Shown piece after piece: positions 32,594 to 52,374 of a stretch of 64,000 nucleotides of DNA. A model generated the notes under the pieces. The model was given only the letters and a program-made list of their open reading frames with translations, was not told the DNA's origin and did no database searches. This DNA comes from Actinomycetota bacterium. GTDB lineage: Bacteria; Actinomycetota; Geothermincolia; Geothermincolales; RBG-13-55-18. How positions within the stretch are numbered: position 1 is the first letter of the stretch; the number at the start of each line of letters is the position of its first letter. A program made the position numbers and the translations under genes. The stretch is from NCBI GenBank assembly GCA_003598015.1, contig QZKE01000033.1, positions 124,616-188,615 of the forward strand, in the 5' to 3' direction.

Positions 32594-32935
32594 TTTGGCA
32601 CCTCCCGGTGGTAATGCACGGTTCCGCCCGTGCCGAGAGACGTTGAAAACGCACTTGACCATAGCATAACGCATGTTCGCATCCGAGTGGTGGAGAATGG
32701 CCGGCATTTTATGGTGCTGCATTACCTTCCAATCCCCTCTCGTCCCCCCGTGGTGTTTGCGTCCCGCATTCCTGCCACTCCTTCCCGTTCAAGCCGGGAA
32801 GGGTCCGGAAAATACCATCCACCTCACCGCGGGCGACCTTGGTTTGCATGCCGGCGATATACTGGCAGGGGCTCCGATGCAATAATAGAGGCATGCCGTT
32901 ACCATTGCAGGCTCTCAGGTGAGGAGGGAGGGGGC

Positions 32936-35599
32936 ATGGGCAGGTCATTCCTGATGGCGTTCGACCTCGGCGGCGGCTCCGGCAGGTGCATACTGGTCGA
33001 CCTGGAAACGGGAGCCGCCTTTTCAACCAAGAGGGACTGGTCGTATCCCGTAGCGCCCGGTACCGCGGGCCTGGGTTACGACCTGGATCTCGAGGACATG
33101 TGGCGCAAGCTGGGAGAAGCCTGCCGCCAGGTGGTGGAGGAAGCGGGAGCCGGGCCCGGGGAAATACTGGGCGTAGCCGCCACCAGCATGCGCAACACCA
33201 CGGTATTGCTGGACGGCGAAGACAGGGTGCTCTTCGCCACCCCCAACCAGGACGGGCGTGCCCTGGGCAACGCGCTGATGCTGGCGGGCGAGCGCGGCAT
33301 GGAGTTCTATCGGGCGGGCGGCCACTGGCCGGGCCCCATTTTCACCGGCCCGAGGCTGCTGTGGATGCAGAACAACGCGCCGGAACTCCTCGCACGGGCC
33401 ACGCGCGTCACCTGCCTCTCCGACTGGATGGGGTTCCGCCTGAGCGGGGGTCTCTATTCCGAGAGGTCGCAGGCGGGCGAGACCATCCTCTTCGACCACC
33501 GCAAACGCGACTGGGCCCGGGACCTCATCGCGTCCATCGGAGTGGATCCGGGGATGTTCCCCGAGGTGGTGGGTGCGGGGACCCTTATCGGAAGCCTCAC
33601 GCGCGAGGCGGCGGAGCACCTGGGCCTGGCGCCCGGCATCCCGGTTGCGGCGGGCGGCGCCGACACCCAGTGCGGCCTGCTGGGGGCGGGATGCGTGCGG
33701 GACGGGGATCTCGGCGTCATCGCCGGAACCTCCATGTCCGTGCAGCAGGTCTGCGGGGACTACGTGCTGGACGGGGAGGGCCGGCTGTGGAGCGGGCAGC
33801 ACGTGGTGCCCGGACTGTACGTGCTGGAGAGCAACGGCCTGCTCTCGGGCACGGTCCTGGAATGGTTCTCGCGCATCCTCCATCCGGGCAGCTACGACCC
33901 GCTCGCGGTCCTCTTCGCCGCGGCGGCACGTTCCGAGCCCGGCGCGGCGGGGGTGTATTCGACCTTCGGGGCCCATGTAGGGGACGCCCGCAGCATCAGC
34001 GTCATCCTCGGCAGCCTCACCATGTCCCACATGGTGACCCCCGACACCCTCGCCTGCCGCGATCACATCGGCCGGGCCCTGCTGGAGGGCATCGCCTATT
34101 CCGCCTGGGCCAACGCCGGACAGGTCATCGCGGTGAGCGGCATGGACCCGGACTTCCTTGACGCGGGAGCGGGCATGTCCAGGAGCGCACTGTGGACCCA
34201 GATAGTCAGCGACGTGGCGGGGAAGACGGTAAGGGTGCATGCGGTGGCGGAGAACTCGGCGCTGGGCGCGGCCATCTGCGCCGGCGTGGGGGCCGGCGTC
34301 TTCCCCGACCTGGTGGAGGGCGCCAGCCGCCTGGTGAGCGTGGAGAGGGAACAGCGGCCGGGGGAGCATGCCCAGAAATACGGGGAGCTGTACGCGGGCT
34401 GGAGGGAGGCCATGGACAAAGGCTCCGAGTGTGAAAGCTGCATGGCGAACCAGATGGCCGTGGCCATGCTCTCCCGCGCGCCGGCGGCCTGCGAGGCACC
34501 ACCCGCCTTCCGGCCCCGCATACTGGTCACCGCGAGCATGGACGATGCGGCCCTGGGCGAGCTGCGCGGCATGGGCGAAGTGGACTTCCGCCCCTGGCGC
34601 GAGGAGATGAGCGTCCTGGGGGGCGGGCGGGAGCTGGCGCAGGCGCTGGCGGGCTTCGACGTCTTCATCACCGAGATGGACGTGGTGGACTTCGAGGCCC
34701 TGCGCGATACGCCGGGCCTGAAGATGATCATCTGCTGCCGCGTCAACGCCGTCAACGTCGACCTGGAGGCGGCCACCGCCTTCGGCGTACCCGTGGCCAA
34801 CACCCCCGGCAGGAACTCAGGCGCGGTGGCGGACCTCGCCGTGGGCTTCATGATCATGCTGGCGCGCAAGCTGCCCGGGGCGGCCACGTTCCTCAAGCAA
34901 AGCGGCGGCGAGGCCGGCGACCTCCTGCGCATGGCGCAGGCCTACGAGGAATACCAGGGCAGCGAGCTCTGGCGCAAGACGGTAGGCCTGGTGGGCCTGG
35001 GCAACGTGGGAACGCGGGTCGCCGCCAGGCTGTGCCCCTTCGGCGCGAAGGTCATCTTCTACGATCCCGGAATAGACGCCGCGGAAGGGGTACTGGCGGG
35101 GGCCGAGAAGGTGTCCTTCGAGGAGTTGCTGAGGCGCAGCGACTTCGTGAGCGTGCATGCCCCGGCCACCGCGGCCAGCGAAAAGCTCATGGACCGTGAG
35201 GCCTTCTCGCGCATGAAGGAGGGGGCGTTCTTCATCAACACGGCGCGGGCCTCCCTCGTCGATGACGAGGCCCTGGCGGAGGCGCTGGAGAGCGGGAAGC
35301 TCGCCGGGGCCGCACTGGACGTTTTCACGGTGGAGCCCCCCGCGGCGGATAACCGGTTGGCGGGGAGGGAAGACGTCATCGCCACCCCGCATATAGGGGG
35401 CAACACGCGGGAGATCGGCGCCCACCAGGGGGATATCGCCGCGGACCAGCTGCGCAAACTGCTGCGCGGAGCGTCACCCGACCACATCCTCAACCCGGGG
35501 GTACTGGAGGGGTTCGCCTGGGAGGGGCCCCGCCGCGAACCACCTCCCGAGGTGCTCGAGTCACTCGCCCGCAACCCGAAGCCGTCCATCACCTCTTAG
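32936..35599 (+). CDS. Fusion protein: FGGY-family carbohydrate kinase (N-terminal about 500 aa) + D-isomer-specific 2-hydroxyacid dehydrogenase (C-terminal about 330 aa)
   Basis: Single frame without stop; FGGY motifs (MAFDLGGGSGRC, AGGADTQCG, GTSM); 2-HADH NAD-binding GLVGLGNVGTRVA and catalytic HIGGNT; ATG 32936 with GAGGAGGGAGGGGG RBS. Confidence 0.7.
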   Translation: MGRSFLMAFDLGGGSGRCILVDLETGAAFSTKRDWSYPVAPGTAGLGYDLDLEDMWRKLGEACRQVVEEAGAGPGEILGVAATSMRNTTVLLDGEDRVLFATPNQDGRALGNALMLAGERGMEFYRAGGHWPGPIFTGPRLLWMQNNAPELLARATRVTCLSDWMGFRLSGGLYSERSQAGETILFDHRKRDWARDLIASIGVDPGMFPEVVGAGTLIGSLTREAAEHLGLAPGIPVAAGGADTQCGLLGAGCVRDGDLGVIAGTSMSVQQVCGDYVLDGEGRLWSGQHVVPGLYVLESNGLLSGTVLEWFSRILHPGSYDPLAVLFAAAARSEPGAAGVYSTFGAHVGDARSISVILGSLTMSHMVTPDTLACRDHIGRALLEGIAYSAWANAGQVIAVSGMDPDFLDAGAGMSRSALWTQIVSDVAGKTVRVHAVAENSALGAAICAGVGAGVFPDLVEGASRLVSVEREQRPGEHAQKYGELYAGWREAMDKGSECESCMANQMAVAMLSRAPAACEAPPAFRPRILVTASMDDAALGELRGMGEVDFRPWREEMSVLGGGRELAQALAGFDVFITEMDVVDFEALRDTPGLKMIICCRVNAVNVDLEAATAFGVPVANTPGRNSGAVADLAVGFMIMLARKLPGAATFLKQSGGEAGDLLRMAQAYEEYQGSELWRKTVGLVGLGNVGTRVAARLCPFGAKVIFYDPGIDAAEGVLAGAEKVSFEELLRRSDFVSVHAPATAASEKLMDREAFSRMKEGAFFINTARASLVDDEALAEALESGKLAGAALDVFTVEPPAADNRLAGREDVIATPHIGGNTREIGAHQGDIAADQLRKLLRGASPDHILNPGVLEGFAWEGPRREPPPEVLESLARNPKPSITS

Positions 35600-35617
35600 A
35601 GGGGAAAGGAGACAGCC

Positions 35618-35959
35618 ATGGCCGTTGGTTTCCCGGCTAAATACGAGGAAGTACGCCCATACAACCTGCACTTCAACTATCTCAGCAACGCTGCGGTGAA
35701 CGCGCTGAATTCCCTGGGATGGAAATACTATGCTTTAACTCCCTATCAATTCAGCGCGGAGGGCAAGATGAGCCTCTTATCCTGGGGCGAGACCATGGCC
35801 ATCAATATCTTCCAGGACGGAACGGTGCAGATGCTGAGCAAATGCTCATTCCCCCTGCAATGGTTCGATTGGGGCAAGAACAAGAAAAATGTGGTCCGTT
35901 TCTTCGCCTGGCTGGATTATTTCCTTTCCCAGATGGCCTATGCGCCTGGAAACAGATAA
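35618..35959 (+). CDS. Hypothetical protein (aromatic-rich, no recognised domain)
   Basis: 113-aa ORF, RBS GGAAAGGAG, 19 nt after preceding gene; lower GC than surroundings. Confidence 0.4.
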   Translation: MAVGFPAKYEEVRPYNLHFNYLSNAAVNALNSLGWKYYALTPYQFSAEGKMSLLSWGETMAINIFQDGTVQMLSKCSFPLQWFDWGKNKKNVVRFFAWLDYFLSQMAYAPGNR

Positions 35960-36148
35960 TTATCAATGAGAGCCTTCACTTCCTGAGGGCTGACGTAAGG
36001 GGGGTAGAACGTACCCGACTCCGATCAATTGCCCCAGGCGTAATGGTAAGAATGAGCCTGGGGTCAGAATGTGAGGATCTACTGGCTAAATGACCGGAGA
36101 TCACACCGGACAGGGCTACGCCCTGGCTGCGTTATTCTCAATCTTCGT

Positions 36149-36799
36149 CTAAGTGCCTTCGTAACCTTTCTCGTAGTCCTTATTGTAACCGTCATAGAAA
36201 CCGCGTTCATACTCTGGGGGGCCGCCGCCGGTCCAAAGGCCGGGTGTGGGGCTGAACCCAAATCCGAAATCCTTGTCCGCTTCGCCGTGCCTTAAGCCCA
36301 TCTCATATCCATCTTCGTAGCCAGCATCGTAGTCCAGGATTCTATCTGACTCCACGGTCTCTTTATCATCACTGGAGGCCTCCTCCCCAGAGGCCTCTTC
36401 CTCGGAGGCAGCTAACTGCAGCTCTTCCTCCTTTATGCGAATGCAATCTTCGTAAGCGTCAAAATATCCATCCAGATTACCAACCCGGAATCCCTCGTCA
36501 TACTTTGCATTGCCGGTCTTGACGCCCATGGAAGAAGGGGTGAAGTCTTCTCCCCTCGCGTAGTCCCCCGTCCCTTCGGAATACCCGTTCTTATAGCCGA
36601 GATCGTATCCTTTGCGATACTCCTCACTTGTGGATTTGTTGCGGTTGGCTGGATCGCCGACACCCTGTTTCTTCAGCAAGTCCATGTACGCCTTGTTCCT
36701 CTCCGCCAAGCTCTTGCCGTTGCAGCCGCAAGAGAGGATAAGGGACAGGCTGAGTAAAGATATGATCAGCAACAGACCCCTGGTGGTGGCCTTCTGTAT
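36149..36799 (-). CDS. Predicted lipoprotein with Gly/Tyr/Asp-rich repeats (GYDLGYKNGY, DGYFDAYED, GYEDGYEMG)
   Basis: Signal peptide ending in lipobox-like LILSC|GC; low-GC gene. Confidence 0.5.
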   Translation of the reverse strand: MQKATTRGLLLIISLLSLSLILSCGCNGKSLAERNKAYMDLLKKQGVGDPANRNKSTSEEYRKGYDLGYKNGYSEGTGDYARGEDFTPSSMGVKTGNAKYDEGFRVGNLDGYFDAYEDCIRIKEEELQLAASEEEASGEEASSDDKETVESDRILDYDAGYEDGYEMGLRHGEADKDFGFGFSPTPGLWTGGGPPEYERGFYDGYNKDYEKGYEGT

Positions 36800-36971
36800 C
36801 ATCACAACCACCTGTTTTGGATTTGCCGCCCTATTGCTTTGATTATATACAGTGAGGGAATCCTATGCCTAGCATGTAGGATACGTATACAGTGCCATCT
36901 TTGCGGCTCTCTTTGAATCTGAGTCCTGCTAGGGTACATCTATATCCAGGATCACACGGGAAGGGCGTAAG

Positions 36972-37038
36972 TTGACGTTAGAATCGATATGTTCTATAGT
37001 TAACTGATATATATACTATATTGTTAGTTTACAATAGG
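36972..37038 (+). promoter_or_regulatory. Promoter for arsR-nifS-dsrE operon (TTGACG 36972-77, 17-nt spacer, TATAGT 36995-37000) followed by TATTGT-N6-ACAATA inverted repeat (putative ArsR operator)
   Basis: Read from sequence immediately 5' of ATG 37050. Confidence 0.4.
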
Positions 37039-37049
37039 TTCAGGTAGAG

Positions 37050-37370
37050 ATGAACGAGATATTCGAACTCCACGCGGACATATGCAAGACTTTTGCGAAC
37101 TCCAAGAGGCTTGAAATCATCGATGCATTGAGGGATCAAGAGATGACAGCAAGCCAGTTGCTCATGCGAATCGACACCAGTAAGGCAAACCTCTCACAAC
37201 ATATGAAAGTACTTGTGGAAAAAGGGGTAGTGGATTCGAGGAAAGACGGAGTGAAAGTTTACTACCGCCTGAGCGACGAGAGGATAACCAAAGCGTGCGA
37301 CCTGATGCGCGAGGTGTTGATAAAAAGGTTGGAGCTGAACAACGAGATCCTACAGAATCTGAGAAAGTAA
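37050..37370 (+). CDS. ArsR/SmtB family transcriptional regulator
   Basis: 106 aa; wHTH ICKTFANSKRLEIIDAL...MTASQLLMRIDTSKANLSQHMKVLVEKGVV. Confidence 0.8.
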   Translation: MNEIFELHADICKTFANSKRLEIIDALRDQEMTASQLLMRIDTSKANLSQHMKVLVEKGVVDSRKDGVKVYYRLSDERITKACDLMREVLIKRLELNNEILQNLRK

Positions 37371-37371
37371 A

Positions 37372-38580
37372 ATGAACCAGCGTAGCGTATCAGCGGGAAA
37401 CACGGAAGCCGGAAAACCGGTCTATCTGGATTATAATGCAACCACGCCAACCGATCCCGATGTTGCTGAGGCGATGCGGCCTTATCTTGCGGAGTATTTC
37501 GGAAATCCGTCCAGTTCCTATTCGTATGGCATTCAAACAAAGGACGCCATTGAGAACGCGCGCGCGCAAGTCGCGGCGCTTCTAGAATGCCAACCCCATG
37601 AGGTGGTCTTCACCAGCGGGGGGACAGAATCCAATAATTTCGCGATAAAAGGAACGGCCTTCGCCAATCGCGATAGGGGCAACCATGTCGTAACAGCACA
37701 GATCGAGCACCCGGCAGTCACGCAGGTATGCGAGTACCTCGAGCGGCAGGGTTTCGATATCACTTATCTGCAGGTCGACGAATTCGGCCTCATCAGCGTT
37801 TCGGATGTCGAAAAGGCCATTAGCGGTAGAACTACGCTTATAACCATCATGCACGCCAACAACGAGGTTGGGACCATTCAACCCATCGAACAGATTTCCA
37901 GGCTGGCTTCCGAAAAGGGGGTCACCTTCCATACCGATGCTGCTCAATCCGCCGGGAAGATCCCCGTAAGCGTCGGTGATCTTGGGGTTGACCTCCTTTC
38001 CCTGGCCGGGCACAAAATATATGCTCCAAAGGGTATTGGTGCATTGTACATCCGACAAGGCCTGAGGCTCGAGAAATTCATGCACGGAGCCGGCCAGGAG
38101 CGAGGAATGAGGGCTGGAACCGAGAACATCCTGGGGATTGTAGGCCTTGGGAAAGCCTGCGAGATCGCGAAGCGGGACCTAAGCCGTAACGCGTCCCGGA
38201 TGAGAGACATGCGTGACGCATTATATAAAGGATTGTTTGAAAGCCTGGAAAACGTGCGGCTGAACGGGCACCCGGAGAGGCGTCTCCCCAATACGTTGAG
38301 CTTCAGCATTCAGGGTGTTCAGTCGGACGTTCTCCTCGGCAAGATCAAGGGACGTTTGGCTGCTTCCGCAGGTGCGGCCTGCCACTCCGGCGAAGTCGAC
38401 ATATCCCACGTCCTACGGGCGATGAAAGTGCCGGAGGATTGGGCGAGAGGGACAATCCGTTTGTCCACCGGCAAGATGACGACCGAATCCGATATCGAAA
38501 CGGCGATAAGGATTATCGCGGATGCGGTGAGCAGTCTCAGGGACACAGCGGATGGTTCTTCTATGAAGAGGAGGTTATGA
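37372..38580 (+). CDS. nifS: Cysteine desulfurase (NifS/IscS-type, class V aminotransferase)
   Basis: YLDYNATTP, GGTESNN, PLP-Lys motif SLAGHKIYAPKGIG, active-site SAGAACHSG. Confidence 0.9.
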   Translation: MNQRSVSAGNTEAGKPVYLDYNATTPTDPDVAEAMRPYLAEYFGNPSSSYSYGIQTKDAIENARAQVAALLECQPHEVVFTSGGTESNNFAIKGTAFANRDRGNHVVTAQIEHPAVTQVCEYLERQGFDITYLQVDEFGLISVSDVEKAISGRTTLITIMHANNEVGTIQPIEQISRLASEKGVTFHTDAAQSAGKIPVSVGDLGVDLLSLAGHKIYAPKGIGALYIRQGLRLEKFMHGAGQERGMRAGTENILGIVGLGKACEIAKRDLSRNASRMRDMRDALYKGLFESLENVRLNGHPERRLPNTLSFSIQGVQSDVLLGKIKGRLAASAGAACHSGEVDISHVLRAMKVPEDWARGTIRLSTGKMTTESDIETAIRIIADAVSSLRDTADGSSMKRRL

Positions 38581-38900
38581 TGAAACTCGGCATGATCATC
38601 AGCCAGACCGATGCGGAGACCGTCTTCAACGCCTTGCGCCTGGCCCTCTACAGCCTGGAACAGGGCGACGAGGTGCGCATTTTCCTTTCGGGAAGAGGCG
38701 TTGAGATAGACAGCATAGAGGATCCCAAGTTCGATGTGAAGGCCCAGGCACAGCTGGTCCTGGATGCGGGCGGACAATTCCTCGCATGTGGCGCATGCCT
38801 GAGGCTTCGCAACTCCGAGGGGTCTGAGATATGCCCCCTCTCAACTCTAATGGATCAATACGATATCGTACGCGAATCCGACAGGGTCGTGACGTTCTGA
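38580..38900 (+). CDS. DsrE/DsrF-like sulfur-relay family protein
   Basis: ATG 38580 with GAGGAGG 7 nt upstream, overlapping nifS stop; about 107 aa with conserved Cys (ACGACL). Confidence 0.6.
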   Translation: MKLGMIISQTDAETVFNALRLALYSLEQGDEVRIFLSGRGVEIDSIEDPKFDVKAQAQLVLDAGGQFLACGACLRLRNSEGSEICPLSTLMDQYDIVRESDRVVTF

Positions 38901-39003
38901 CACTTATTCAGTAGAGTGGGCGGAAACGGAGGCAGACCGTTACCCGATCGGCAAGTCATTTGGTTGACCTTGATTTGTGTAGGAATATTCTGGTAAGCGC
39001 ATC

Positions 39004-39040
39004 TGCCTCGAAAGGCGTTTCGCTTTGCCGCGGGCTTTGC
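39004..39040. repeat. Left copy of imperfect direct repeat TGCCTCGAAAGGC...GGGCTTTGC flanking the HepT/MntA + TIR-gene islet
   Basis: Matches 43592-43616 (TGCCTCGAAAGGCaccGGGCTTTGC); left copy has a 12-nt internal insertion. Confidence 0.45.
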
Positions 39041-39209
39041 GGAATCGCATCCCTCCCCTCCGTCAACATCTATCTTGAGCTGGGAATCTGCGTGAAAAAT
39101 CTAGACCGCTTGTTTATGCCATCGAATTGCGAATTCCCCGGCTGTGCCCAAAACGTGCCCGATTTACGAGGAGGCCAGAGTGCAGATATGATGGAGAAGG
39201 CAGCGCAGG

Positions 39210-39557
39210 TCATACTTCTTTCTCTATTACGTATGCGATGAGCGGCTTAAGTCTCGGGATGTCCTCCATCACGGTGTTCCATACCACCCTTGAATTCACC
39301 CCGAAATATTCATGGATCAGCTTATCACGGATTCCAGCCATCTCCTTCCAGGGGACCTCTGGATAGGAATCCCTTGTCTCTGGAGGGATTTTCTTCGAAG
39401 CCTCGCCGACGATCTCCAGGGCCCTGACCACGGCGTACGAGGTCTTCTTGTCCTTTGTGAATGCTTCGTAATCAAGGCCTTGCGTAAAATCCACGATGTC
39501 CAGGATAGCCCTTTGGATGTCTTGAAGGTAGTCCTTATGATCTCTTTCGGCAATCAT
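39210..39557 (-). CDS. hepT: HepT-like HEPN toxin (DUF86 family) of type VII TA system
   Basis: R-x4-HxY motif (RDKLIHEY); 115 aa; 4-nt overlap with upstream mntA. Confidence 0.85.
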   Translation of the reverse strand: MIAERDHKDYLQDIQRAILDIVDFTQGLDYEAFTKDKKTSYAVVRALEIVGEASKKIPPETRDSYPEVPWKEMAGIRDKLIHEYFGVNSRVVWNTVMEDIPRLKPLIAYVIEKEV

Positions 39558-39895
39558 AGCGAAACGGCTTCCTTGAGGATTCTTTCACCTATTGCCGGCT
39601 TCAATGCATCCTTCATCACCAGGTCTACCTTGATTCCCAGAAGGTCGGATAGGTGATTCTCGAGTGCGATGAAAGCAAGCAAAGAGGGGGTTTTTACAAA
39701 CTCTACTAAGAGATCAAGATCGTTTGCCGACTCTCTCCCGCCCCGCAGAAAGGACCCGAAGACCTGAATGTTGCCTACGTGGTAGTCACATTTCAATCGC
39801 GGGAGGTTCTGGCGCAAGGCAGATATTATCTCCTGGGTATCTCCAGGAAGATCCTTATAACCATGTGGGCTCTTACCCTTGGAGTCCGTAGCCAT
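39554..39895 (-). CDS. mntA: MntA-like nucleotidyltransferase antitoxin
   Basis: GSxxRG...DxD motif (FGSFLRGGRESANDLDLLV); 113 aa. Confidence 0.85.
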   Translation of the reverse strand: MATDSKGKSPHGYKDLPGDTQEIISALRQNLPRLKCDYHVGNIQVFGSFLRGGRESANDLDLLVEFVKTPSLLAFIALENHLSDLLGIKVDLVMKDALKPAIGERILKEAVSL

Positions 39896-40208
39896 ACCCT
39901 TTCCACCACCTCAAATCGGCCTGTTCTGTAAACATTCTACAATGCCAAGAAGACCTTGACACTATAAAAACATTACATGGGGCTAAACAGCACAGCCCAT
40001 GCCGGTCGTGAGGGTGCTGTCGTGATCCGTAATGTGTGGGACTACCCAGATATGATACCCCTACCCGAGGTGCTATCATGGTTGTAGTGCTGTGGTTCGG
40101 GGCCAAAGGGTTCCAACTATTTAAGGGTTACGCGCAGGGCAGTTCCCTTGCATGCGTGACCACCATCAAGAGGGCCTGCACCACTGGATCTATCCAGGTG
40201 AGGTGCAC

Positions 40209-43200
40209 ATGGGAAATATCTTCATCAGCCACGTCATTGCGGACGAGCTCCTCATGCGCGAAATAGCGCAGGGGCTCGAGGAGGCGGGCTATGCCGCCTG
40301 GTTCTTCGAGAGGGGCGTCCTCCCCGGAACCTCCTATCTCATCCAGATCACCCGGGCGATAGAGGCCTGCGACGCCCTGGTACTGCTGGTCACCCCCGCA
40401 GCCCTCGAATCCGACCAGGTGACCAAGGGGGTGGTGGGGGCCTTCGAGCGCAGGATACCTTTCATACCGGTACTGGTGGGTGTGATCCCTGACGAGCTCA
40501 AGGAATGCCAGCCGGAGTGGCGGCACGCCCTGGGGGGAACGGCCATGCTCTGCTGCGGGGAGGGGGGCCTCTCACCCACCATACCGCGCATCATAGATGG
40601 AATCCGGGCGCTGGGCATAGAACCCAAGGAAAGGGAGTTCTCTACAACTACCCCTGCTTCCTCCGCACCAGCAGATGTCTCCGAGCACATTCTCTCCTAC
40701 CGCTCATCCCTGGAGGGGGAGCGCAAGCAGGTGACGGTGCTCTGCGCCGGCGCATCCCTTCCTCCCGCCCTCTCCGAGAAGCTCGACCCCGAGGAGGTAC
40801 ACGACCTCCTGAGGCCGGCTATAGACATCATGGCTGAGGAGGTCCACAGATACGAGGGCACCGTGGCCCAGCTCGCAGGCGACGGCCTCACCGCCGTCTT
40901 CGGAGCCCCCCTGGCTCACGAGGACGACCACCAGCGGGCCCTGTACGCGGCACTGGCCATCAGGAAGCGCCTGGGCGGATACGAGGAGAGACTCAAAGCC
41001 AAGGGGATGGAACTTGCCCTGCGCGCGGGGGCCAACACCGGCCTCATCAAGGTGGAGGCCGTAGGGGAGGACCTCTCCATGTCCTATACCCCCCTGGGCA
41101 TGGGCAAGTCCCGCCTGCTGCTCGAGTTCAGGAAAACCCTCCCCGAGGACGAATACACCTACCTGGAGGGGGGGTGAATCCACTACGGGGAGGCCATCGC
41201 CTACCTCCCCATCCTGGACATCCTGCGGGACTACTTCGATATCGCTGAGGGAGAGGATGAGAAGAGCAGCAGACGCAAAGTGGAGGAAAGGCTGGCTCCC
41301 CTGGACGGCCAGCTCTCCCATATCCTCCCGCCCCTCGAGGAGCTGCTCTCCCTTCCCATGGACGACGAGTCCTATCTCTCCCTGGAGCCCGCGCAGAGGA
41401 GGAAGAGAACCTTCGAGGCCATCCGCTGTCTGCTCATAGCCGAATCCCACAAGAGGCCTCTGGTGGTCTCGGTGGAGGACCTGCACTGGATGGACAGGAC
41501 GAGCGAGGACTTTATCTCCTATTTCGTGGAGAGCATGCCCGCTGCCTCCATCCTCCTGCTCCTGCTCTACCACCCGGAATACAGCCCTGCCTGGGCAAGC
41601 AAGACCTATTACCGGCAGATCCTCGTGGATCACCTGCAGGAGAGGCCGAGCATGGAACTGGTGCAGGCCATCCTCTCTGATGGTGAGGTCTCCCCCGAGC
41701 TCTCCGCTTTTATCACCGAAAGAGCCGCTGGGAACCCACTCCTTATCGAGGAGCTCACCCGCTCCCTGCTGGAGTCGGGCTCCATCACGGCAGAGGACGG
41801 GCGCTACACCCTCGCGGCCGAGCCCTCTGAGATCAAGGTGCCGGATAGCATGCAGGGCATCGTCGCCTCCCGCCTGGACCATCTGCCTGAGGAGGAGAAG
41901 GAGGTTCTGCAGCTCGCCTCGGTCATCGGGAGGGAGTTCTCACTGCGCCTGCTGGAGGAGGTCACCGGCCTGGGTAAGGTGCTCAAGTCCACACTCCACG
42001 CCCTGCAGTCCCTGGAGCTCATCTACGAGAAGGGCCTCTTCCCTGAGCCGGAGTACATCTTCAAGCATGCCCTCACCCAGGAGGTGGCCTACGAGAGTAT
42101 CCCCTCAAGAGAAGGAAGAGACTGCACGAGAAGATCGGCCAGGCAATTGAGCGGCTCTACCCGGAACGCCTGGAGGAATTCTACGAGACCCTGGCCCACC
42201 ACTACTCCAGGAGCGAGAACGCGGAAAAAGCCGTGCACTACCTCCGGCTCTCCGGAGACAGAGCGACACGCGACTACGCCAACTGGGAGGCCATACGCTT
42301 CTACCAGGAGGCTATACATATACTCGATTCCCAACCGCAGAGCGAGGAGACAAAACGGGCCAAGTTGGATATCTTCATCTCCATCCTGGACCCCGCCTTC
42401 TTCCTGGGCTTTCCCGAGGGCAGCAGCGAGTTCCTGGCAGAAGCGGAGAGGCTCGCCTGGGAACTTGGTGACGATGGCAGCCTTGTCGCCGTTTACAGCA
42501 GGTTCTCCCTCTACCACACCATGAGGGGAGACATATCCCTGGGTGTGGAATACTCCTGGAAATGCTTCGACGCAGCGGAGAAGGCCGGGGACGTTAGATC
42601 TATGTCCCTAGCCGCTTTCGACATCTGCAGCTCCCTGTTCTTCTCGGGAGATTTTTTAGAAGTCGTCATGATTGGCCGCAAGGTCATCGAGGCCCTGGAG
42701 GAGAAGCACCTGGAAAAAGAGCTCAAAGTAGGGCCGTGGACCGTATACAGCGATCAGTGCGCGTGGTGCGGAGAAGCCCTGGGGATGATGGGGGAATTCG
42801 AGGAGGCAAAGACGGTGCTGAAGAAGGGGATCGAGCATGCCCTGGGGATCGGTGAAGTCTTCGGGATCGGATATATCGGCCAAGCTCACTGCGTCGTTTC
42901 GTTCCCGGAAGGGGACGCGGATGGCCTTGCCTATCACGCGAGCAGGTCCATCGAGCGCTTCGAGGAGACGGGGGTAAAGTTCCTCCTGGGAATTTCGATG
43001 GCTTGGTCGGGGCTGGGCTATTTGCTCCTCGGCGATTATGAAACTGCAAGGGAGGATATCGAGAAGGGCAGCGAGAGCAATAGAGAGTTTGGCTTACCAA
43101 TCATGCTGTCGTTTTTTTCATGGGCGCTGTCCCTGGTTGATCTCGGAGCAGGGGCACCCGGCAAAGCAAAAGCGCATGCGGAGGAGGCCTTGAGGCTGGC

Positions 43201-43519
43201 GCGTGTGCACGGGGCGGTGTTATATGAGGCATTGGCCCTAGTGGCCCTGGGAAGGGCGGAGGGAGAAGAGTCCCCCTCTCGTTTGCGGGAAGCATCAGAG
43301 CATATCCGTTGCGGTATTTCCATGGCCGAGGAGATGTTGTCGAAGCCAATCTCACAGCTGGGCTATATTTTTCTTGGCGAGGTCTTCGAGCTAGCCGGCC
43401 GAAGGGAAGAAGCTGTGGAGGAACTTCGTAAGGCAGAGGCGATGATGGAGGAGCTGCGGGTGATTCCCGACTCCTACTGGCTCACCCGCACCCGGGAAGC
43501 TCTGGCGCGTCTCGGTTAG
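40209..43519 (+). pseudogene. Disrupted TIR domain - class III adenylate/guanylate cyclase (partial) - AAA_16/STAND ATPase - TPR protein (in-frame TGA at 41175-41177; -1 frameshift in C4 run 42101-42104)
   Basis: TIR: MGNIFISH...DALVLLV...PVLV. Cyclase N-half: ERKQVTVLCAGA...GDGLTAVFGAP..HEDD. Walker A: GMGKSRL. The same frame continues after TGA (...LEGG*IHYGEAIAYLPILDIL...). The downstream frame resumes ...PLKRRKRLHEKIGQAIERLYPERLEEFYETLAHHY then TPR repeats to 43519. Confidence 0.6.
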
Positions 43520-43591
43520 GAATAGATCTACTTCGCGATTCCATAACATGATGTGCGATTACACCGAAACCGCCCATTTGAAAATCTCACA

Positions 43592-43616
43592 TGCCTCGAA
43601 AGGCACCGGGCTTTGC
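43592..43616. repeat. Right copy of direct repeat TGCCTCGAAAGGC-N3-GGGCTTTGC
   Basis: See 39004-39040. Confidence 0.45.
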
Positions 43617-43672
43617 TGCTGGTCGCGCGAGTCCGCAACCAACCCTATCCGCTGGCATTAGAGCGATCTTGT

Positions 43673-44209
43673 TCAGGCCATCTTCTTGCGTAGTTTCGCC
43701 AGCTTGGGAGAGATGACCGCCCGGCAGTAGGGCTGGCTCGGGTTCCTCTCGTAGTACCTGTGGTGGTATTCCTCGGCCGGATAGAACCTGTCCAGCTCCT
43801 TAAACTCGGTGACGATGGGCCTGCCGTAGCTGCCGGTGATGCTCGCGATATATTTCTCCACGCGCTCTTTCTGCTCCGGCGATTTGTAGAGGATAATGGA
43901 CCTGTACTGCGTGCCGACGTCGGCGCCCTGGCGGTTCAGCGACGTTGGGTCGTGCGTCGCGAAGAACACCTCCAGCAAGTCCTCCAGGGAGATGACCTCA
44001 GGGTCGTACTCTACCTCGACAACCTCGGCATGGCCCGTGTTTCCATAGCAGACCTGGCGGTAGGTGGGTTCCTCAGTCACGCCTCCCGCATAACCCGGGG
44101 TAGCCCTGAGCACTCCAACAATGGTGTTCAGCAGTGCTTCCATGCACCAGAAGCACCCTCCACCCAGGACGATGGTCTCGTGGCTATTCTGCATTATCAT
44201 CGGGTACAA
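43673..44209 (-). CDS. msrA: Peptide-methionine (S)-S-oxide reductase MsrA
   Basis: GGGCFWC active-site motif; 172-178 aa. Confidence 0.9.
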
Positions 44210-44555: not shown

Positions 44556-44578
44556 GTTTGTCCCAATCCTCTTCTCAT

Positions 44579-44613
44579 TCAGGCATAGGGGTCGGCCCTG
44601 GACTCATGCCTGA
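44579..44613 (+). repeat. Third copy of dispersed palindromic repeat (TCAGGCATAGGGGTCGGCCCTGGACTCATGCCTGA) with terminal inverted ends TCAGGCAT/ATGCCTGA
   Basis: 32/32 identity to 19575-19606; intergenic between msrB and the repeat-domain gene. Confidence 0.6.
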
Positions 44614-44695
44614 GACCTTTCTTGCGATCTTGGTTCTCCAGTCTATATAAAATCTATTCCCATTCGGGCCACGCCTGTATGTTCCATGTCAACCT

Positions 44696-45837
44696 TCATG
44701 GCTGGAAACCCACAACGTCGTGGCCTCCGCTCCATGACCCGTCGTAGTCGAAGTACATGGGGCGCTCGGCGATTACAGGCGGGCCGCTGGTCACCAGGAC
44801 CCGGCAGGACAATTGCAGGCCGATGCCGGCGTCCAGGTTGACGGGGATGGTGTAACGGCTCCCGGCCGGCAGGCTGTGCTCACGGGTGAAGGCGTCCCCA
44901 CCCTGGGGCATGTAGGTCACCAGGACAGTGGATGGAGAATCGGCGGGGTTGTACAGGCACAGCCACTCCTCGAAATCGCTGTCCGCGTATCCCTCGGCGA
45001 AAAACCATTCACGCCCCGGCGCGCCTGCGCCGATGACGCAATGACCTCCCGTCCATGCCCCATGATAATTGAAGTACATGGGTCGTTCGGCTACGATGGG
45101 CGCATCCGCTGCGACCTTGACGGAAACCTCGCGGTTTGGCCCCACGACGTCGTTAACACATACCGTAGTGCGGGAGACGGGACCGACGATGACATCCTGA
45201 TCCTGCCTGGTGCCGTCGGCGAACATGTAGGATATGGAGACGCCGGCCGGCTGCAGGCCGGGGTTCGCGAGGCAGAGATACTCGTCGAACTCGCCCTGTC
45301 CCGTGTATCCCTCTGCGAAATAGAAGATCGTCCCGGGGCGGGGGTACCGATGACATCATGCCCGCCCGTCCACACCCCGTTGTAATTGAAATACATGGGG
45401 CGCTCCACTACGATAGGCTGCCCCCCGGCGCTTTCAACTTTCACGGAGAAGTCGTGTGCTACGTCGTCGGCGACGCCCAGCTCGTCCCGGGGATCGACGG
45501 TAAGGCGGGAATGTGCGGCTACGGCCACTTCCTGGCTGTCCATCGTGCCGTCTCCCAGCATGTAGGTTATTTTCGCCGTCGCTTGTTCGTCCCCGGGATT
45601 CTGGATGCACAGGTAAGGCACGAAGCCGGGTCGGCAGGTCCCCTCCGCGAAATAGAAACAAGTCTGCGGCGCGGGGATACCCACTACGTCATGGCCACCC
45701 GTCCACACCCCGTTGTAGTTGAAGTACATGGGGCGCTCGGCCACGATACGCTGTCCGTTCACGCATTCGACTTTGATGGAAAAGTCGTATGAGGTGTCGT
45801 CACCGGTCCCCAACTCGCTGCGGGGCAGCACGGTCAT
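44696..45837 (-). pseudogene. Tandem-repeat protein (at least 3 copies of an about 120-aa domain with W.FAEG and ERPMYFNY..W.GGHDV motifs) split into two frames by a 1-nt indel near 45335-45350; N-terminus starts mid-repeat
   Basis: Track ORFs 45091..45837 and 44696..45226 overlap in different frames. DNA at 45315-45378 is 1 nt shorter than the paralogous segment at 45655-45719. Confidence 0.45.
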
Positions 45838-46039
45838 GCGTGGTCCTCATCTATAACACTGCACAGGTCAGAGCTTCATCTCTCCGAACTGCTTTCTTAC
45901 CTCAGTGGAGGGCGGAGGATCAAAGCCCCCATAGGCTGCGCCAACGGATTTACAGTCCGGAGATGCCCCTAGTACACCTCAGATAATCTTGTCAAGATCT
46001 CAATCCCCGCTCCCCCACCGATCCTCTATATATAGTGGC

Positions 46040-46171
46040 ATGAAATCTGTGCCCCTCCATGACGGAGACGAGTGCCTGGGATCCGTCCTCCTCACCACCG
46101 ACCTCGATTTTTATGACGGCATGAGGTCAAGGCACGGAAGTGGAGGTGATTGTCGCCAAGTAAGGGTATAA
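46040..46171 (+). CDS. Small hypothetical protein (about 43 aa), paralog of 47335..47523
   Basis: MKSVPLHDGDECLGSVLLTTDLDFYDGMRSR vs MKNVPLYDCDQNIGSVPLTTNLDTWDGMRWR; ends 55 nt upstream of Fic. Confidence 0.35.
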   Translation: MKSVPLHDGDECLGSVLLTTDLDFYDGMRSRHGSGGDCRQVRV

Positions 46172-46226
46172 TAATCATTGTATTACCCTTACTTATGGGT
46201 TATTACCCCGACTGTCAGGAGGGCAG

Positions 46227-47273
46227 ATGAACACGCTGTCGCTGGAATACATAGGGGGGAAGCTCCTGCCTCAGCAGTTGTTGAAGACCATCAGATTGAT
46301 CGGGGAATACAAAGGGAGGCAAGACCTGTTCAAGGCGCAGGCGCCACAGATGCTGGAGAGCTTGAGGCAGGTGGCCATGGTGCAGAGCGTGGAGTCTTCC
46401 AACCGCATCGAGGGCATCACCGCACCCCATGAGAGAATCCTGGCCTTGGTGGGCGAAAAAACCTCGCCCAAGGACAGGTCCGAGCAGGAGATCGCCGGAT
46501 ACCGGGACGTGCTCAACAGCATCCACGCCAATTATAAGAACATGGAGCTCTCTGAGGAGCTTATCTTGGGGATGCACAAAGACCTATACGGATACCTTCC
46601 CGATGAAGGAGGCTTTTGGAAGAGGAGAGACAATCGGATCGTTCAGATAATGGCCGGCGGGAGCGTGGTAGTGAGGTTCGACCCCGTGGCGGCGTCTGAG
46701 ACCAAGAAGGCCATGGCAGACCTGCAAAAACGCTTCGAGGTGTTGTGGCGCTCGGGTGAAGTGGAGCCGCTCCTTTTAATCGCAAGCTATGTATTCGATT
46801 TTTCGTGCATCCATCCCTTCCAGGATGGGAACGGCAGGATGGCGCGCCTGCTCACCCTCCTGCTCCTCTACAAGCAGGACTATGAGGTAGGCCGCTACAT
46901 CAGCCTGGAGAAGGTGGTGGAGCAAACCAAGGATAGCTATTACCGCGTGCTCTATACATCCTCCCAGGGATGGCATGAAAAGGAGCACGACATCCTGCCA
47001 TGGTGGGAATACTTCATCGGGGTTATGTTGCTCTCTTCCTATAGGGAATTTGAAGAGAGGGTGGGGGTGGTGTCCTCATCGAGGGGGACCAAGACCGCCA
47101 TGGTCTTGGACGTTATCAACGGCTTTGCAGGAGAGTTCACCTTTGCGGACTTAAAGGAAAGGTGCCCCACCGTCAGCGTGGATATGATCAGAAAGGTCTT
47201 GAAAGATGAGCGCGGGGCCGGAAACCTGGAATGCAGGGGCAAAGGCCCGGGGGCGAGGTGGAGGAATACATGA
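46227..47273 (+). CDS. Fic family protein (class II, N-terminal inhibitory SxxxEG motif) with C-terminal wHTH-like domain
   Basis: HPFQDGNGRMARLL Fic motif; SNRIEG inhibitory motif about 130 aa upstream; lower-GC region. Confidence 0.85.
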   Translation: MNTLSLEYIGGKLLPQQLLKTIRLIGEYKGRQDLFKAQAPQMLESLRQVAMVQSVESSNRIEGITAPHERILALVGEKTSPKDRSEQEIAGYRDVLNSIHANYKNMELSEELILGMHKDLYGYLPDEGGFWKRRDNRIVQIMAGGSVVVRFDPVAASETKKAMADLQKRFEVLWRSGEVEPLLLIASYVFDFSCIHPFQDGNGRMARLLTLLLLYKQDYEVGRYISLEKVVEQTKDSYYRVLYTSSQGWHEKEHDILPWWEYFIGVMLLSSYREFEERVGVVSSSRGTKTAMVLDVINGFAGEFTFADLKERCPTVSVDMIRKVLKDERGAGNLECRGKGPGARWRNT

Positions 47274-47334
47274 TATGCAACCAATGCGCTGAAAGTGCAC
47301 CTGCACTCTCAGGTAGGCATCGTCGGGCAGCAAC

Positions 47335-47523
47335 ATGTCCTTTGGTGAGGCAATGAAGAACGTGCCCCTCTACGACTGTGACCAAAACATAGGCTCCGTC
47401 CCGCTCACAACCAACCTTGACACCTGGGACGGCATGAGGTGGCGCTTTCAGCAGACCGGCTGCCATCTGGGTATAGGGAAGCTCGAGGATGGCCGCTTCT
47501 ACGCCTGCTACTCCAGCGACTAG
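47335..47523 (+). CDS. Small hypothetical protein (paralog of 46040..46171); in-frame TAG at 47521 followed by 52 more coding-like codons to TAA 47689-47691
   Basis: Paralogy as above; GC3-rich codons continue in the same frame after TAG (PEGIVRRKQDDGIWEVLFRCTGDFGPPALAVVISEEEAKELVRECKEDMYEEMFG). Confidence 0.4.
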   Translation: MSFGEAMKNVPLYDCDQNIGSVPLTTNLDTWDGMRWRFQQTGCHLGIGKLEDGRFYACYSSD

Positions 47524-47767
47524 CCCGAAGGCATCGTCCGGCGCAAGCAAGACGATGGCATCTGGGAGGTCCTCTTCAGGTGTACCGGCGACTTCGGACC
47601 CCCGGCCCTGGCGGTGGTGATCAGCGAGGAAGAGGCCAAGGAGCTGGTACGAGAGTGTAAAGAAGATATGTATGAGGAGATGTTCGGGTAAGGGCTAAAA
47701 TGGAGCATCTACACAATCATATCGTAGCCATTATTTTGGATTGATATAGCGGTACGTCTCATGTATA

Positions 47768-47835
47768 AGGGCTCAAATGTTGACATTTCGTATTTCTCTA
47801 CAAGCCCCATGGATTTGAAAGTCAACATTTGAGCT
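47768..47835. promoter_or_regulatory. Long inverted repeat GGGCTCAAATGTTGACATTTCG / TGAAAGTCAACATTTGAGCTC (25-nt spacer) upstream of the glpA-like operon; operator or terminator hairpin
   Basis: 14-bp perfect core GCTCAAATGTTGAC in both arms read from sequence. Confidence 0.4.
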
Positions 47836-47912
47836 CTGACCCCATAATCTTGATTTTTATGGGTAGAATGGTATGAATAGGCCTGAGGACACCGATTGAA
47901 CGAAGGAAACGT

Positions 47913-49472
47913 ATGCGAACAGAGACATCATCCCTGCCTGCGCGGGCCGGCCTGGTGATCGTCGGGGGCGGCGTCATCGGCTGTTCCATCGCCAGGGAAG
48001 CAACGCGTTATACCCCCGACGTGGTCGTCCTGGAGAAGGAGAGCGACGTATCCTGCGGCACCAGCAAGGCCAACAACGCCGAGGTGCACTCCGGCATCGG
48101 CGAGGACGCGGGGACCCTGAAACAGAAACTCAACGTGCGGGGAAACCAGATGTATGATGAGTTCGTGCGGGGCCTGGGCGTGGAGGTCAAGCGGCACGGC
48201 ATGCTCATCGTGGTCACCCAGCGCGTCATCCCCGAAGAGACCGCCGGGGGCATGAGCGAGGAGGAGAGGGAGGAGATCCTCACGCGCAAGATACCGCAGG
48301 GCATCGTGGCCTACGGCGAGAAGGCCGGTATAAAGGGGCTGCGCGTGCTCACGCGCGACGAGGTCTTCCGCATGGAGCCCAACGTCACCCGCGAGGCCGT
48401 GGCCGGCGTGTTCGACGGAACCTACGGCCTCATCAGCCCCTACAAACTGACCATAGCCCTGGCGGAGCACGCGGTCATCAACGGGGCCAGGGTGTTCACG
48501 GACACCGCGGTCACCGGGTTCCGCGTGGAGGACGGAGGGGTCAAGGCGGTGATCACGGACCGCGGAGAGATCGAGACCTCCCTGGTGGTGAACGCGGCGG
48601 GCGTGTTCGCCGACGAGGTGGCGGACATGGCAGGGGCGGGCGGATTCATCATCCACCCCCGCAAAGGGGCCACCCTGCTTTTCGACCGCCAGGTGACCGC
48701 CGAATACGTGAAGTCGAGCGTGGCGGAGTTCCGCCTGCCGGGCCAGAAGACCACCCAGAGCAAGGGCGGCGGTGCCATGCCCACCGACGAGGGCAACCTG
48801 CAGCTGGGGCCCACCGCGGTGGAGACCGGCGACAAGTACGACACCTCCATCTCCGCGGAGGAGATCGAGGAGATCTTCGAGAGGTTTCACTACCTCCTCC
48901 CCGATTTCCCCCGCGACGCCCTCATCTCCGCCTTCAGTGGCATCCGTGCCCCCACCCTGGAGGAGGATTTCGTCATCGGCGCCTCCGAGGCGGTGCTCGG
49001 CTTCGTGAACGTGGCGGGGATCCAGTCGCCGGGTCTCGCCTCCGCTCCGGCCATCGCCGAGATGGTCATCGGCATACTGCACGAACTGGGCATGCCCGGC
49101 GAACCCAGGCCCGACTTCGATGCGGTGCGGCCGAAGCCCGCGAGGTTCTCCCAGCTTTCCAACGCCGAGCGCAACGCGCTCATCAAGGAAGACCCGCGTT
49201 GGGGGCACGTCATCTGTCGCTGTGAGACGGTGACCGAGATGGAGGTGCTGAACGCCATACACGCCGTAATCCCCGCCACCAACATGGACGCGGTGAAACG
49301 CCGCACCCGCACCGGCATGGGCAGGTGCCAGGGTGGGTTCTGCCACAACCGCGTGGCGGCCATCCTGGCCGGGGAATTGGGGATACCCATCACCGCGGTG
49401 ACCAAGGACGGGGAGGGTTCCCCCATCTTCCTGGGGACGGCCAAGGATTTTCTCAGGGGTGAGGGCGCATGA
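47913..49472 (+). CDS. FAD-dependent oxidoreductase, anaerobic glycerol-3-phosphate dehydrogenase subunit A (GlpA)-like, with C-terminal BFD-like [2Fe-2S] domain
   Basis: GLVIVGGGVIGCSIAREA FAD motif; C-terminal CRCETVTE...GMGRCQGGFC. Confidence 0.8.
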   Translation: MRTETSSLPARAGLVIVGGGVIGCSIAREATRYTPDVVVLEKESDVSCGTSKANNAEVHSGIGEDAGTLKQKLNVRGNQMYDEFVRGLGVEVKRHGMLIVVTQRVIPEETAGGMSEEEREEILTRKIPQGIVAYGEKAGIKGLRVLTRDEVFRMEPNVTREAVAGVFDGTYGLISPYKLTIALAEHAVINGARVFTDTAVTGFRVEDGGVKAVITDRGEIETSLVVNAAGVFADEVADMAGAGGFIIHPRKGATLLFDRQVTAEYVKSSVAEFRLPGQKTTQSKGGGAMPTDEGNLQLGPTAVETGDKYDTSISAEEIEEIFERFHYLLPDFPRDALISAFSGIRAPTLEEDFVIGASEAVLGFVNVAGIQSPGLASAPAIAEMVIGILHELGMPGEPRPDFDAVRPKPARFSQLSNAERNALIKEDPRWGHVICRCETVTEMEVLNAIHAVIPATNMDAVKRRTRTGMGRCQGGFCHNRVAAILAGELGIPITAVTKDGEGSPIFLGTAKDFLRGEGA

Positions 49473-51098: not shown

Positions 51099-51219
51099 TC
51101 AGGCCTGACCCCCGGGCCTGACACAAGCATTTTCGCCATATCAGGAACACCTCAGTCATAACCCGAGTCATAGGGCATGTAGTCATTTATATACGTAAAG
51201 GAAGGGGCAGCCAATAATC

Positions 51220-52284: not shown

Positions 52285-52288
52285 TGAA

Positions 52289-52373
52289 GGGGTCGTATCT
52301 TCGATCTTCGGTTCTTGCTTAGATAAACGCTGCCCCTAACGGAATACTGAACTCAATATTGAAGATACGACCC
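52289..52373. repeat. 16-bp near-perfect inverted repeat GGGTCGTATCTTCGAT / ATTGAAGATACGACCC with about 52-nt loop between convergent mscS and ligase genes
   Basis: Read from sequence; 15/16 complementary. Confidence 0.4.
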
Positions 52374-52374
52374 G

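Follow-up and report, generated by a model that had tools for sequence, protein, structure and literature searches.

The window analysed here, a 64,000-nt stretch of an Actinomycetota bacterium (contig QZKE01000033.1), carries between dsrE and msrA a 4.6-kb block with a HepT/MntA toxin–antitoxin (TA) pair and a TIR-cyclase-STAND gene, which an earlier note had taken for a possible insert bracketed by att-like direct repeats. The repeats derive from the 3′ part of a tRNA-Ser(CGA) gene and are probably diverged attachment (att) sites, with the block as the likely fossil of a TA/defence module that lacks an integrase of its own. The locus, from left to right, reads as follows.

38580..38900, plus strand: dsrE, the left neighbour (Pfam DsrE), which is not a conserved neighbour of the site
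38995..39090, plus strand: left att-like element (independent nhmmer profile, E 4.6e-19)
38995-39006, plus strand: remnant of the P arm in the left element, AAGCGCATCTGC
39007-39013, plus strand: anticodon-loop core CTCGAAA of the left element, in an 11-nt conserved block that runs to 39017
39018-39065, plus strand: stretch of the left element derived from the tRNA-Ser 3′ part
39066-39090, plus strand: stretch of the left element derived from the downstream flank of the tRNA
39210..39557, minus strand: hepT, HEPN ribonuclease toxin, open reading frame (ORF) intact, RDKLIH (Rx4H) motif (Pfam HepT-like, E 4.1e-29)
39554..39895, minus strand: mntA, nucleotidyltransferase antitoxin, ORF intact, GSx10DLD motif, overlapping hepT by 4 nt (39554-39557)
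40058..40121, plus strand: conserved non-coding module, the 5′ border of the TIR-STAND module, marking the junction with the hepT/mntA module at ~40057
40209..43519, plus strand: gene for TIR, class III cyclase, AAA_16 STAND NTPase and TPR domains, now a pseudogene (alternative upstream ATG at 40152)
41097..41098, plus strand: junction of lesion 1, a 315-nt in-frame deletion (105 codons) with GG microhomology at the junction
41175..41177, plus strand: lesion 2, an in-frame TGA where intact homologues have TGC (Cys)
42104..42106, plus strand: lesion 3, a 1-nt deletion causing a frameshift (homologues CTCCCGCTC, here ATCCC-CTC)
43581..43684, plus strand: right att-like element (independent profile, E 1e-12)
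to 43594, plus strand: P arm of the TIR-STAND module in the right element
43595-43601, plus strand: core CTCGAAA of the right element, the block extending to 43605
43606-43654, plus strand: tRNA-derived stretch of the right element, whose flank then runs into the msrA stop codon at 43673-43675
43673..44194, minus strand: msrA, the right neighbour and conserved anchor of a variable spot (Pfam PMSR, E 3e-63)

The sequences and coordinates of the repeats in the earlier note were borne out, with the copies beginning at 39004 and 43592, where the block has its left and right borders. The sequence TGCCTCGAAAGGC lies at 39004-39016 and 43592-43604, its sole matches in the window with up to one mismatch tolerated (0.12 expected), while GGGCTTTGC lies at 39032-39040 and 43608-43616 and at no other site in the window (0.74 expected). 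The spacer between the two measures 15 nt in the left copy and 3 nt in the right copy, and an ungapped alignment of the left and right repeats runs through 13 matches, 5 mismatches and 7 matches. Both copies occupy gaps between convergent genes, dsrE and hepT on the left, the STAND gene and msrA on the right; the left copy lies 104 nt past dsrE and ahead of the 3′ end of hepT, and the right copy 73 nt past the TIR gene and 57 nt ahead of the msrA stop codon. As many as 114 maximal direct repeat pairs of at least 13 nt were found in the window, 40 of them within 10 kb, so repeat length by itself proves nothing. The pair was judged real because both copies lie in the middle of ~95-nt elements (38995-39090 and 43581-43684) that belong to a sequence family. 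An nhmmer profile of 16 element copies from other genomes, with the window copies and the one from locus L095 left out, recovered 38995-39089 (E 4.6e-19) and 43582-43673 (E 1e-12), and the next match in the window had an E of 0.24. Outside the 13-nt core the window copies are ~60% alike, differing at about 40% of positions, and a misassembly at the repeats is unlikely, because they share just 13 and 9 nt of exact identity.

The element consists of a tRNA-Ser(CGA) gene's 3′ two-thirds, starting with the anticodon loop CTCGAAA and taking in the variable arm, the T arm and the acceptor strand with the CCA, and of ~25 nt of downstream flank. This assignment follows from L132, another contig of the same metagenome, on which ARAGORN called a tRNA-Ser with anticodon CGA at 9551-9642 and in which left flank and element read GGAGAGGTGGCAGAGTGGACGAATGCGGCGGT-CTCGAAA-ACCGTTGGGCC...GGTTCGAATCCCACCCTCTCCGCCA. 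The intact tRNA gene of L132 is accompanied by a 60/60-identical copy of its 3′ part at 14316-14394, and the identity block, a perfect repeat of ~65 nt, begins at the anticodon loop. The L132 island is 4.65 kb in length, has no integrase, and contains a DUF433/DUF5615 TA pair and an intact 1208-aa TIR-cyclase-STAND gene, a paralogue of the window gene. The left window element matches the 3′ part of the L132 tRNA gene at 40 of 60 positions, and graded intermediates exist, with identities to the tRNA 3′ part of 100% (L132 fragment), 85-89% (L092), 85% (L106c), 78% (L124b), 75% (the msrA-side copy of L119, to which the right window element is orthologous), and 67% and 65% for the left and right window copies, respectively. 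Both borders of the islet carry tRNA-Ser(CGA) 3′ fragments in the same orientation (plus strand), 65-67% identical to the gene, and the two are candidate attL and attR sites, diverged from each other beyond the 13-nt core. A profile restricted to tRNA-type copies placed its top four window sites at 39002-39074 (E 2.7e-5), 1764-1805 (E 3.7e-5), 43594-43652 (E 3.2e-3) and 258-301 (E 0.012). The motif, which the earlier note would have taken for a mere dispersed repeat had it been frequent genome-wide, is not frequent in the window, with two strong copies and two distant tRNA-like fragments; it does recur in relatives, but invariably at cassette borders, which strengthens the att reading instead of refuting it. 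The att-like character first suspected now has an explanation, as the repeats derive from the very part of tRNA-Ser(CGA) that tyrosine integrases duplicate on insertion.

Other identities of the element were tried and rejected. A conserved peptide was excluded by stops and 1-nt indels between copies (translated by eye), and terminal inverted repeats of the kind found in a miniature inverted-repeat transposable element were dropped, the sole match being a 6-bp AGCTCA/TGAGCT without co-variation. A structured RNA or known RNA family was likewise rejected, with no covariation, no Rfam match at gathering score over the window, and noise alone at E ≤ 10. Upstream of the left element, within 38921-39023, GCGGAAAC-GGAGGCAGA pairs with TCTGCCTC...GTTTCGC across the core to form a long imperfect hairpin, and upstream complements of the core resembling this one were seen in L085a and L085c and are absent from most copies. 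The two distant fragments, of which the one at 258-301 has CTTGAAA as its loop and GGTTCGAACCCC as its T arm and the one at 1764-1805 has TCGCGGGTACGAATCCCGCCCCCTCCGCCA and an ATCTATG flank as in the L132 tRNA, enclose a second pair of HEPN (360-782, minus strand) and HTH-MNT nucleotidyltransferase (790-1380, minus strand) genes, and the stretch 247-1805 looks like another att-bounded TA module.

Loci of related Actinomycetota metagenome-assembled genomes (MAGs) were first fetched through relatives of DsrE and HepT. All fetched loci taken together contain 38 distinct element copies, and CTCGAAA is invariant in 38/38. A metagenome scan with a degenerate pattern returned 30 loci, 12 of which are true family members, some having two to four copies. 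The extended motif AAGCGCAnCTGCCTCGAAAGGCG was found between the TA cassettes of L085-L090. The cassettes separated by copies are 1-5 kb in length and of TA/defence content, as listed here.

L085-90, L095 and L119: AbiE, MntA/HepT and AAA_14/DUF4143 cassettes, with or without DsrE
L131: ParE/MazE with TIR-STAND, and DUF2283/DUF4258 with TIR-STAND
L092 and L124: HepT/MntA cassettes

The junctions between related arrays fall at the core. For 7.3 kb L085 matches L088 at 99.97% identity, and the two then diverge at the core; L090 equals L088 minus two cassettes (AbiE and MntA/HepT), again with its junction at the core; left-flank/right-flank identities of the pairs concerned are 1.00/0.57 and 0.52/1.00. 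The modules end in the tRNA-like part (P′) on one side and in a short P arm, AAGCKCAYCYGS, on the other, which is expected for POP′ sites joined in tandem.

The commonest neighbour of the arrays is the AAA_14/DUF4143 gene, encoding an ATPase with a C-terminal EVDF...EVK motif that resembles a PD-(D/E)xK nuclease. These genes are themselves att-bounded (L085 3560-3660, L095 4560-4620 and L119 8230-8280, and also L086, L090, L099 and L104) and are always preceded by nested palindromes (TACTCAAGATCTTGAGTA...); either role, cargo or recombination partner, is possible for them.

The block itself is, by these comparisons, one repeat-bounded unit built of two modules that meet at ~40057. The hepT/mntA pair with the left element (38995-40056) stands alone in L095, in an unrelated context and at 89.8% nt identity, whereas the TIR-STAND module (40058 to ~43622) is found with other TA pairs in L090, L131 and L132, and as pieces in L090 and L094. 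Homology to L095 ends at 40056, while that to L090 begins at 40058 (87.5% over 64 nt), and for L090, L094, L131 and L132 together it begins at 40058-40070; the non-coding module 40058..40121, probably the promoter or leader of the TIR-STAND module, is common to L094, L131 and L132. The layout of an inverted TA pair followed by a forward TIR-cyclase-STAND gene recurs with ParE/MazE and DUF4258/DUF2283 in L131 and with DUF4258/DUF2283 in L090, and L131 harbors a tandem of two TA and TIR-STAND units, with one of the two likewise split. The outer side of the left window copy is a cassette-type P arm, as beside the AAA_14 cassettes of L085 and L095, and not host sequence, which makes the left copy a junction from inside a former array. 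A search for a third element, to the left of dsrE, that would close a dsrE/nifS cassette found none.

Contigs syntenic with the msrA side were obtained through MsrA relatives of 75-85% identity. The msrB-msrA order is shared by L119 and L126-L130, with different downstream DNA in each, and all of these relatives are ~80% nt identical in the flanking genes and lack the block, which is accessory. Their arrangements are the following.

L119 (~80% nt): msrB-msrA, an element abutting msrA, ParE/MazE and an MNT gene, a copy, AAA_14/DUF4143, and a last copy
L126: msrA joined to a homologue of window 31286-32722
L127: msrA, a single truncated element copy, and unrelated genes beyond
L128-130: an FGGY-kinase gene, a HEAT-repeat gene and msrA, with no element and none of window 35600-43672

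On the msrA side, L119 and the window cease to be homologous at 43595, where the core begins, and the last copy of L119 keeps the tRNA's own ...GGCGGT arm on its left side. The variable stretch covers ~35600-43672 of the window against L128 and 32723-43672 against L126, and the relatives also lack dsrE, nifS and arsR. On this comparison, the msrA flank is a variable spot whose msrA-side copy is old and orthologous, and the islet is accessory, as is arsR-nifS-dsrE. An empty site with dsrE directly before msrA and a single repeat, as the earlier note had predicted, was not found among the syntenic relatives, where some 8 kb beside msrA is variable.

Two other anchors were tried. NifS, searched by tblastn in GTDB genomes, gave a best match of 72% and none with msrA/msrB nearby, and was uninformative; DsrE gave 83-93% identical proteins over many contigs in unrelated contexts, and was of no use for anchoring, but led to the L085-L090 arrays. 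The dsrE gene (window 38577-38907) is 85-89% nt identical, over the ORF only, to copies in unrelated contexts (L085-L093); in L085-L090 it lies inside an att-bounded unit with AAA_14/DUF4143, and the gene seems to travel with the arrays. In L128-L130 the 3′ flank of msrA (10520-10600) carries a different tandem/inverted repeat, GGTCAAGCCTCGCCTCGTGCC...GGCACGGGGGTGAGGCACGGGGG, and not the tRNA-derived element.

Only hepT, mntA and the TIR-STAND pseudogene lie within 39091-43580. The hepT and mntA genes look intact, with their catalytic motifs RDKLIH and GSFLRGGRESANDLD kept in the translations, and as overlapping genes with these motifs they qualify as a TA pair; mntA scored E 2.1e-9 with Pfam NTP_transf_2, E 8e-8 with Polbeta and E 7e-25 with PADLOC PDC-S09. 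The pair resembles HepT/MntA (HEPN/MNT, type VII) systems in domains, motifs, 4-nt overlap, mntA-then-hepT order and siting on a mobile islet, which is frequent for such systems, and nothing unusual was seen in it.

The domains ascribed earlier to the third gene were confirmed, with TIR_2, partial Guanylate_cyc, AAA_16 and TPR all recognisable by Pfam, but it is not a single ORF, being broken into three (40152-41177, 41280-42524 and 42233-43519). A search with the conceptually repaired protein yielded intact homologues of 1208-1210 aa, with P0260 at ~80% and P0261 at 75% identity, having TIR_2, Guanylate_cyc, AAA_16 and MalT-type TPR domains. The 315-nt deletion, which was mapped by protein alignment with P0260 and P0261 and by DNA comparison with L131 and L132, costs the cyclase domain its GDTVN part and AAA_16 its N-terminal part. 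With the in-frame TGA and the frameshift, the gene is a pseudogene inactivated three times over. A second contig with the islet, L002, is 100% identical over 14,057 nt; it is therefore probably not independent of the window contig, and was excluded as confirmation of the lesions.

Proteins that combine TIR, class III cyclase, AAA_16 and TPR form a large family, with 2992 matches at E ≤ 1e-30. PADLOC gave only weak matches, to Pycsar cyclase and TIR models, so these proteins do not make up a catalogued defence system. At the loci that were examined the genes adjoin TA pairs (window 40152-43519; L131 5395-9034 and 10001-13633; L132 10001-13627), and of four full-length copies seen, two are broken (the window copy and the first of L131), while L090 and L094 hold remnants.

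We consider it likely that the repeats are diverged att sites from the 3′ part of tRNA-Ser(CGA), and that the block is a fossil, integrase-less TA/defence module comparable to a cis-mobilizable element (CIME). Modules of 1-5 kb with TA pairs and defence genes follow one another head to tail, linked by the invariant anticodon-loop core, and the junctions would be made by a tyrosine integrase crossing over in the 7-bp anticodon loop; such an enzyme is suggested by the tRNA gene, island and perfect fragment of L132, together with the switching of partners at the core only. As no module encodes an integrase, the enzyme would have to act in trans, and the modules would be CIME-like hitch-hikers assembled by tandem accretion. 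The 4.6-kb block is probably one such module, inverted hepT/mntA plus forward TIR-cyclase-STAND, lodged at the msrA variable spot. It is read as a fossil, and presumably no longer moves, because no tRNA gene or integrase is nearby, identity of the att copies to the tRNA is down to 65-67% and the STAND gene is dead; the intact hepT/mntA pair may be what keeps it in place.

Several results weigh against this reading. ARAGORN found no intact tRNA in the window, and neither a pattern search nor blastn-short found the 5′ half of a tRNA-Ser there. No integrase or recombinase domain was detected in the islet or the other window ORFs scanned, where the Pfam and ORF scans agree with the earlier note on the block, and none in the annotated array loci examined; three scans of viral contigs for a helper phage or element gave 0, 0 and 2 chance matches. 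Since no locus examined has an integrase, the enzyme is one that we purely infer. In place of the CTCGAAAACCG of the tRNA, most cassette copies have CTCGAAAGGCG, a variant that could not rebuild a working anticodon stem, so they may have ceased to use the real tRNA as a target. Gene orientation relative to the element varies between cassettes, and no population variant with as against without the islet was seen. With ~60% likeness outside the 13-nt core, recombination between the two window copies today is also doubtful.

Islands placed in tRNA genes by tyrosine integrases with crossover in the anticodon loop (class I or 'A' sites of Williams 2002; Islander database) are a known kind, an example being mycobacteriophage L5 at tRNA-Gly. 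According to PMC1762012, which cites Williams 2002, strand exchange by class I integrases takes place within the 7-bp anticodon loop; islands are known to restore the tRNA they enter, its displaced fragment forming their far border (PMC4383910), and about half of the mapped islands, 2083/3919 in Islander, have an anticodon-centred attP (PMC4383910). The repeats studied here likewise cover the tRNA from the anticodon loop to the 3′ end, with the 7-nt loop invariant and serving as the switch point, and L132 matches the textbook case, an intact tRNA-Ser(CGA) gene and a perfect displaced fragment framing an island. The crossover position is indicated by the strain switch points in CTCGAAA(GGCG), the end of L119 synteny at 43595 and the start of the L132 block. 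By the Islander scheme, the window islet has displaced fragments; it differs in that neither end has an intact tRNA and the interior has no integrase, and the modules differ in being tiny (1-5 kb) and in reading GGCG for ACCG in most copies, which would disrupt the stem of the anticodon arm.

CIMEs lack an integrase but still have attL and attR, and they join tandem accretions (PMC6323972), and tandem ssrA arrays of Dehalococcoides have been described, with integrase-less members suggested there (PMC3146451). The modules resemble both groups, i.e., the integrative and conjugative elements (ICEs), integrative mobilizable elements (IMEs) and CIMEs of Streptococcus and the ssrA arrays, in their att-like flanks, tandemly repeated att sites and defence/adaptive cargo, and, like a CIME, the window islet has no integration or transfer genes of its own. 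The modules differ in that no cognate ICE, IME or phage was identified, arrays lie at several non-tRNA loci with up to four att copies each, no unit has an integrase, and mobilisation would have to come from elsewhere. The kind of element, with its tRNA att islands, CIMEs and tandem accretion, is known; less usual are the size and number of the integrase-free units and their presence at non-tRNA loci.

A bolder extension of the favoured reading, which we advance only tentatively, is that the lineage runs an integron-like cassette economy on the tRNA-Ser(CGA)-derived site, with one remote integrase that inserts, excises and reorders modules at the core. This enzyme would act at the real tRNA and at chromosomal pseudo-sites, the msrA flank among them, and copies with the GGCG core variant would form a sub-family specialised for pseudo-sites; the modules would typically combine a TA pair with a defence gene (STAND, AAA_14-nuclease or Abi), each having a private copy of the tRNA-Ser(CGA) 3′ part. 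Were the trans integrase confirmed, the family would be a natural example of integrase-free defence cassettes traded at a tRNA-derived site, and would parallel integrons in function in a phylum not known to have them.

The strongest competitor, which we nevertheless regard as unlikely, holds that the elements are relic tRNA-Ser fragments of old phage or ICE integrations, shuffled by homologous recombination with no dedicated enzyme today. It accounts for the absence of an integrase from every locus searched, and for copies that have diverged, many of them (the GGCG variant) unable to rebuild the tRNA. However, the exchanged copies share 52-57% on one side plus an 11-nt identical core, far below RecA-type needs, the switch point is always at the core, and the ~65-nt perfect repeat around the integrase-less L132 island looks recent.

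Still less probable is the version of the earlier note, in which one 4.6-kb cargo entered between dsrE and msrA in a single insertion and duplicated a short target. The direct repeats do lie exactly at the block borders, relatives without the block exist, and L127 has msrA followed by one element copy. This version is already largely refuted, however, as no relative has dsrE beside msrA (dsrE, nifS and arsR are missing there), the repeats are ~95-nt tRNA-derived elements different at ~40% of positions and no fresh duplication, the outer side of the left copy is a cassette-type P arm as in L085 and L095, and the block splits into two modules found separately elsewhere. With the left copy an internal array junction and the block modular, a target duplication between these two genes is unsupported.

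An integron-type cassette array or a cluster of attC sites lacking integron-integrases (CALIN), with the repeats as attC sites, is very improbable. Small, co-oriented, repeat-bounded TA/defence cassettes reshuffled between strains, with an order that varies at a fixed point of the repeat, do recall sedentary chromosomal integrons and CALINs, but the element is plainly the tRNA-Ser 3′ part in place of a folded attC. There is no R″-L″/L′-R′ hairpin, RNAalifold gave only a 4-bp stem without covariation, and single-strand DNA folds were inconsistent; together with the recognition of the tRNA, these results led us to drop the attC reading. The crossover falls in the anticodon-loop core, ~70 nt before the sole GTTRRRY-like motif, no intI gene was found in the window or annotated array loci, and neither IntI nor attI accompanies cassettes that have their own leaders, several genes and both orientations, so that the array is not a member of this class. 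Actinobacteria, moreover, are not known to have complete integrons (PMC4889954). A last rival, chance similarity or a pair of unrelated terminator hairpins (GCCT-CGAA-AGGC) lying in convergent gaps, would suit the frequency of 13-mer repeats by chance, the crude terminator pattern of the left copy and the position of both copies downstream of genes, but its probability is negligible, being already refuted by family membership, with independent profile values of E 5e-19 and 1e-12 over ~95 nt and homology to a tRNA gene, a stem without compensatory changes and unremarkable folding z-scores.

Under the att-module reading that we favour, a vague repeat-flanked islet becomes an explained object, i.e., att relics with borders defined to the base around a dead main cargo gene, and the window's own copy is, as it stands, an ordinary decaying islet. 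A profile of ~100 nt delimits TA/defence modules in poorly known Actinomycetota MAGs, which tRNA and island finders miss because such modules have no intact tRNA and no integrase.

Further features were observed around msrAB. The longest exact repeat in the window, TCAGGCATAGGGGTCGGCCCTGGACTCATGCC, is a 26-32-nt intergenic sequence at 19575-19606 and 44579-44610 (plus strand) and, inverted, at 19653-19678; one site lies directly upstream of msrB, and the repeat is unrelated to the tRNA element and possibly REP-like (repetitive extragenic palindromic). A second variable segment flanking msrAB, 44556-47946 (msrB to a DAO-family gene), is absent from L119 and L126-L128, and holds a Fic-domain gene (46227-47273) and tandem paralogous ORFs (44696-45226 and 45091-45837) in which the motif ERPMYFNYNGVWTGGHDV recurs and which match nothing in Pfam. 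Window 51087-56989 encodes an MscS channel, an ATP-dependent DNA ligase, LigD and Ku, a non-homologous end joining set also present in L127 and L128, while L119 passes straight from 51086 to 56990. Between the ligase and LigD genes lies a 25-nt inverted repeat (53453-53477 and 53501-53525).

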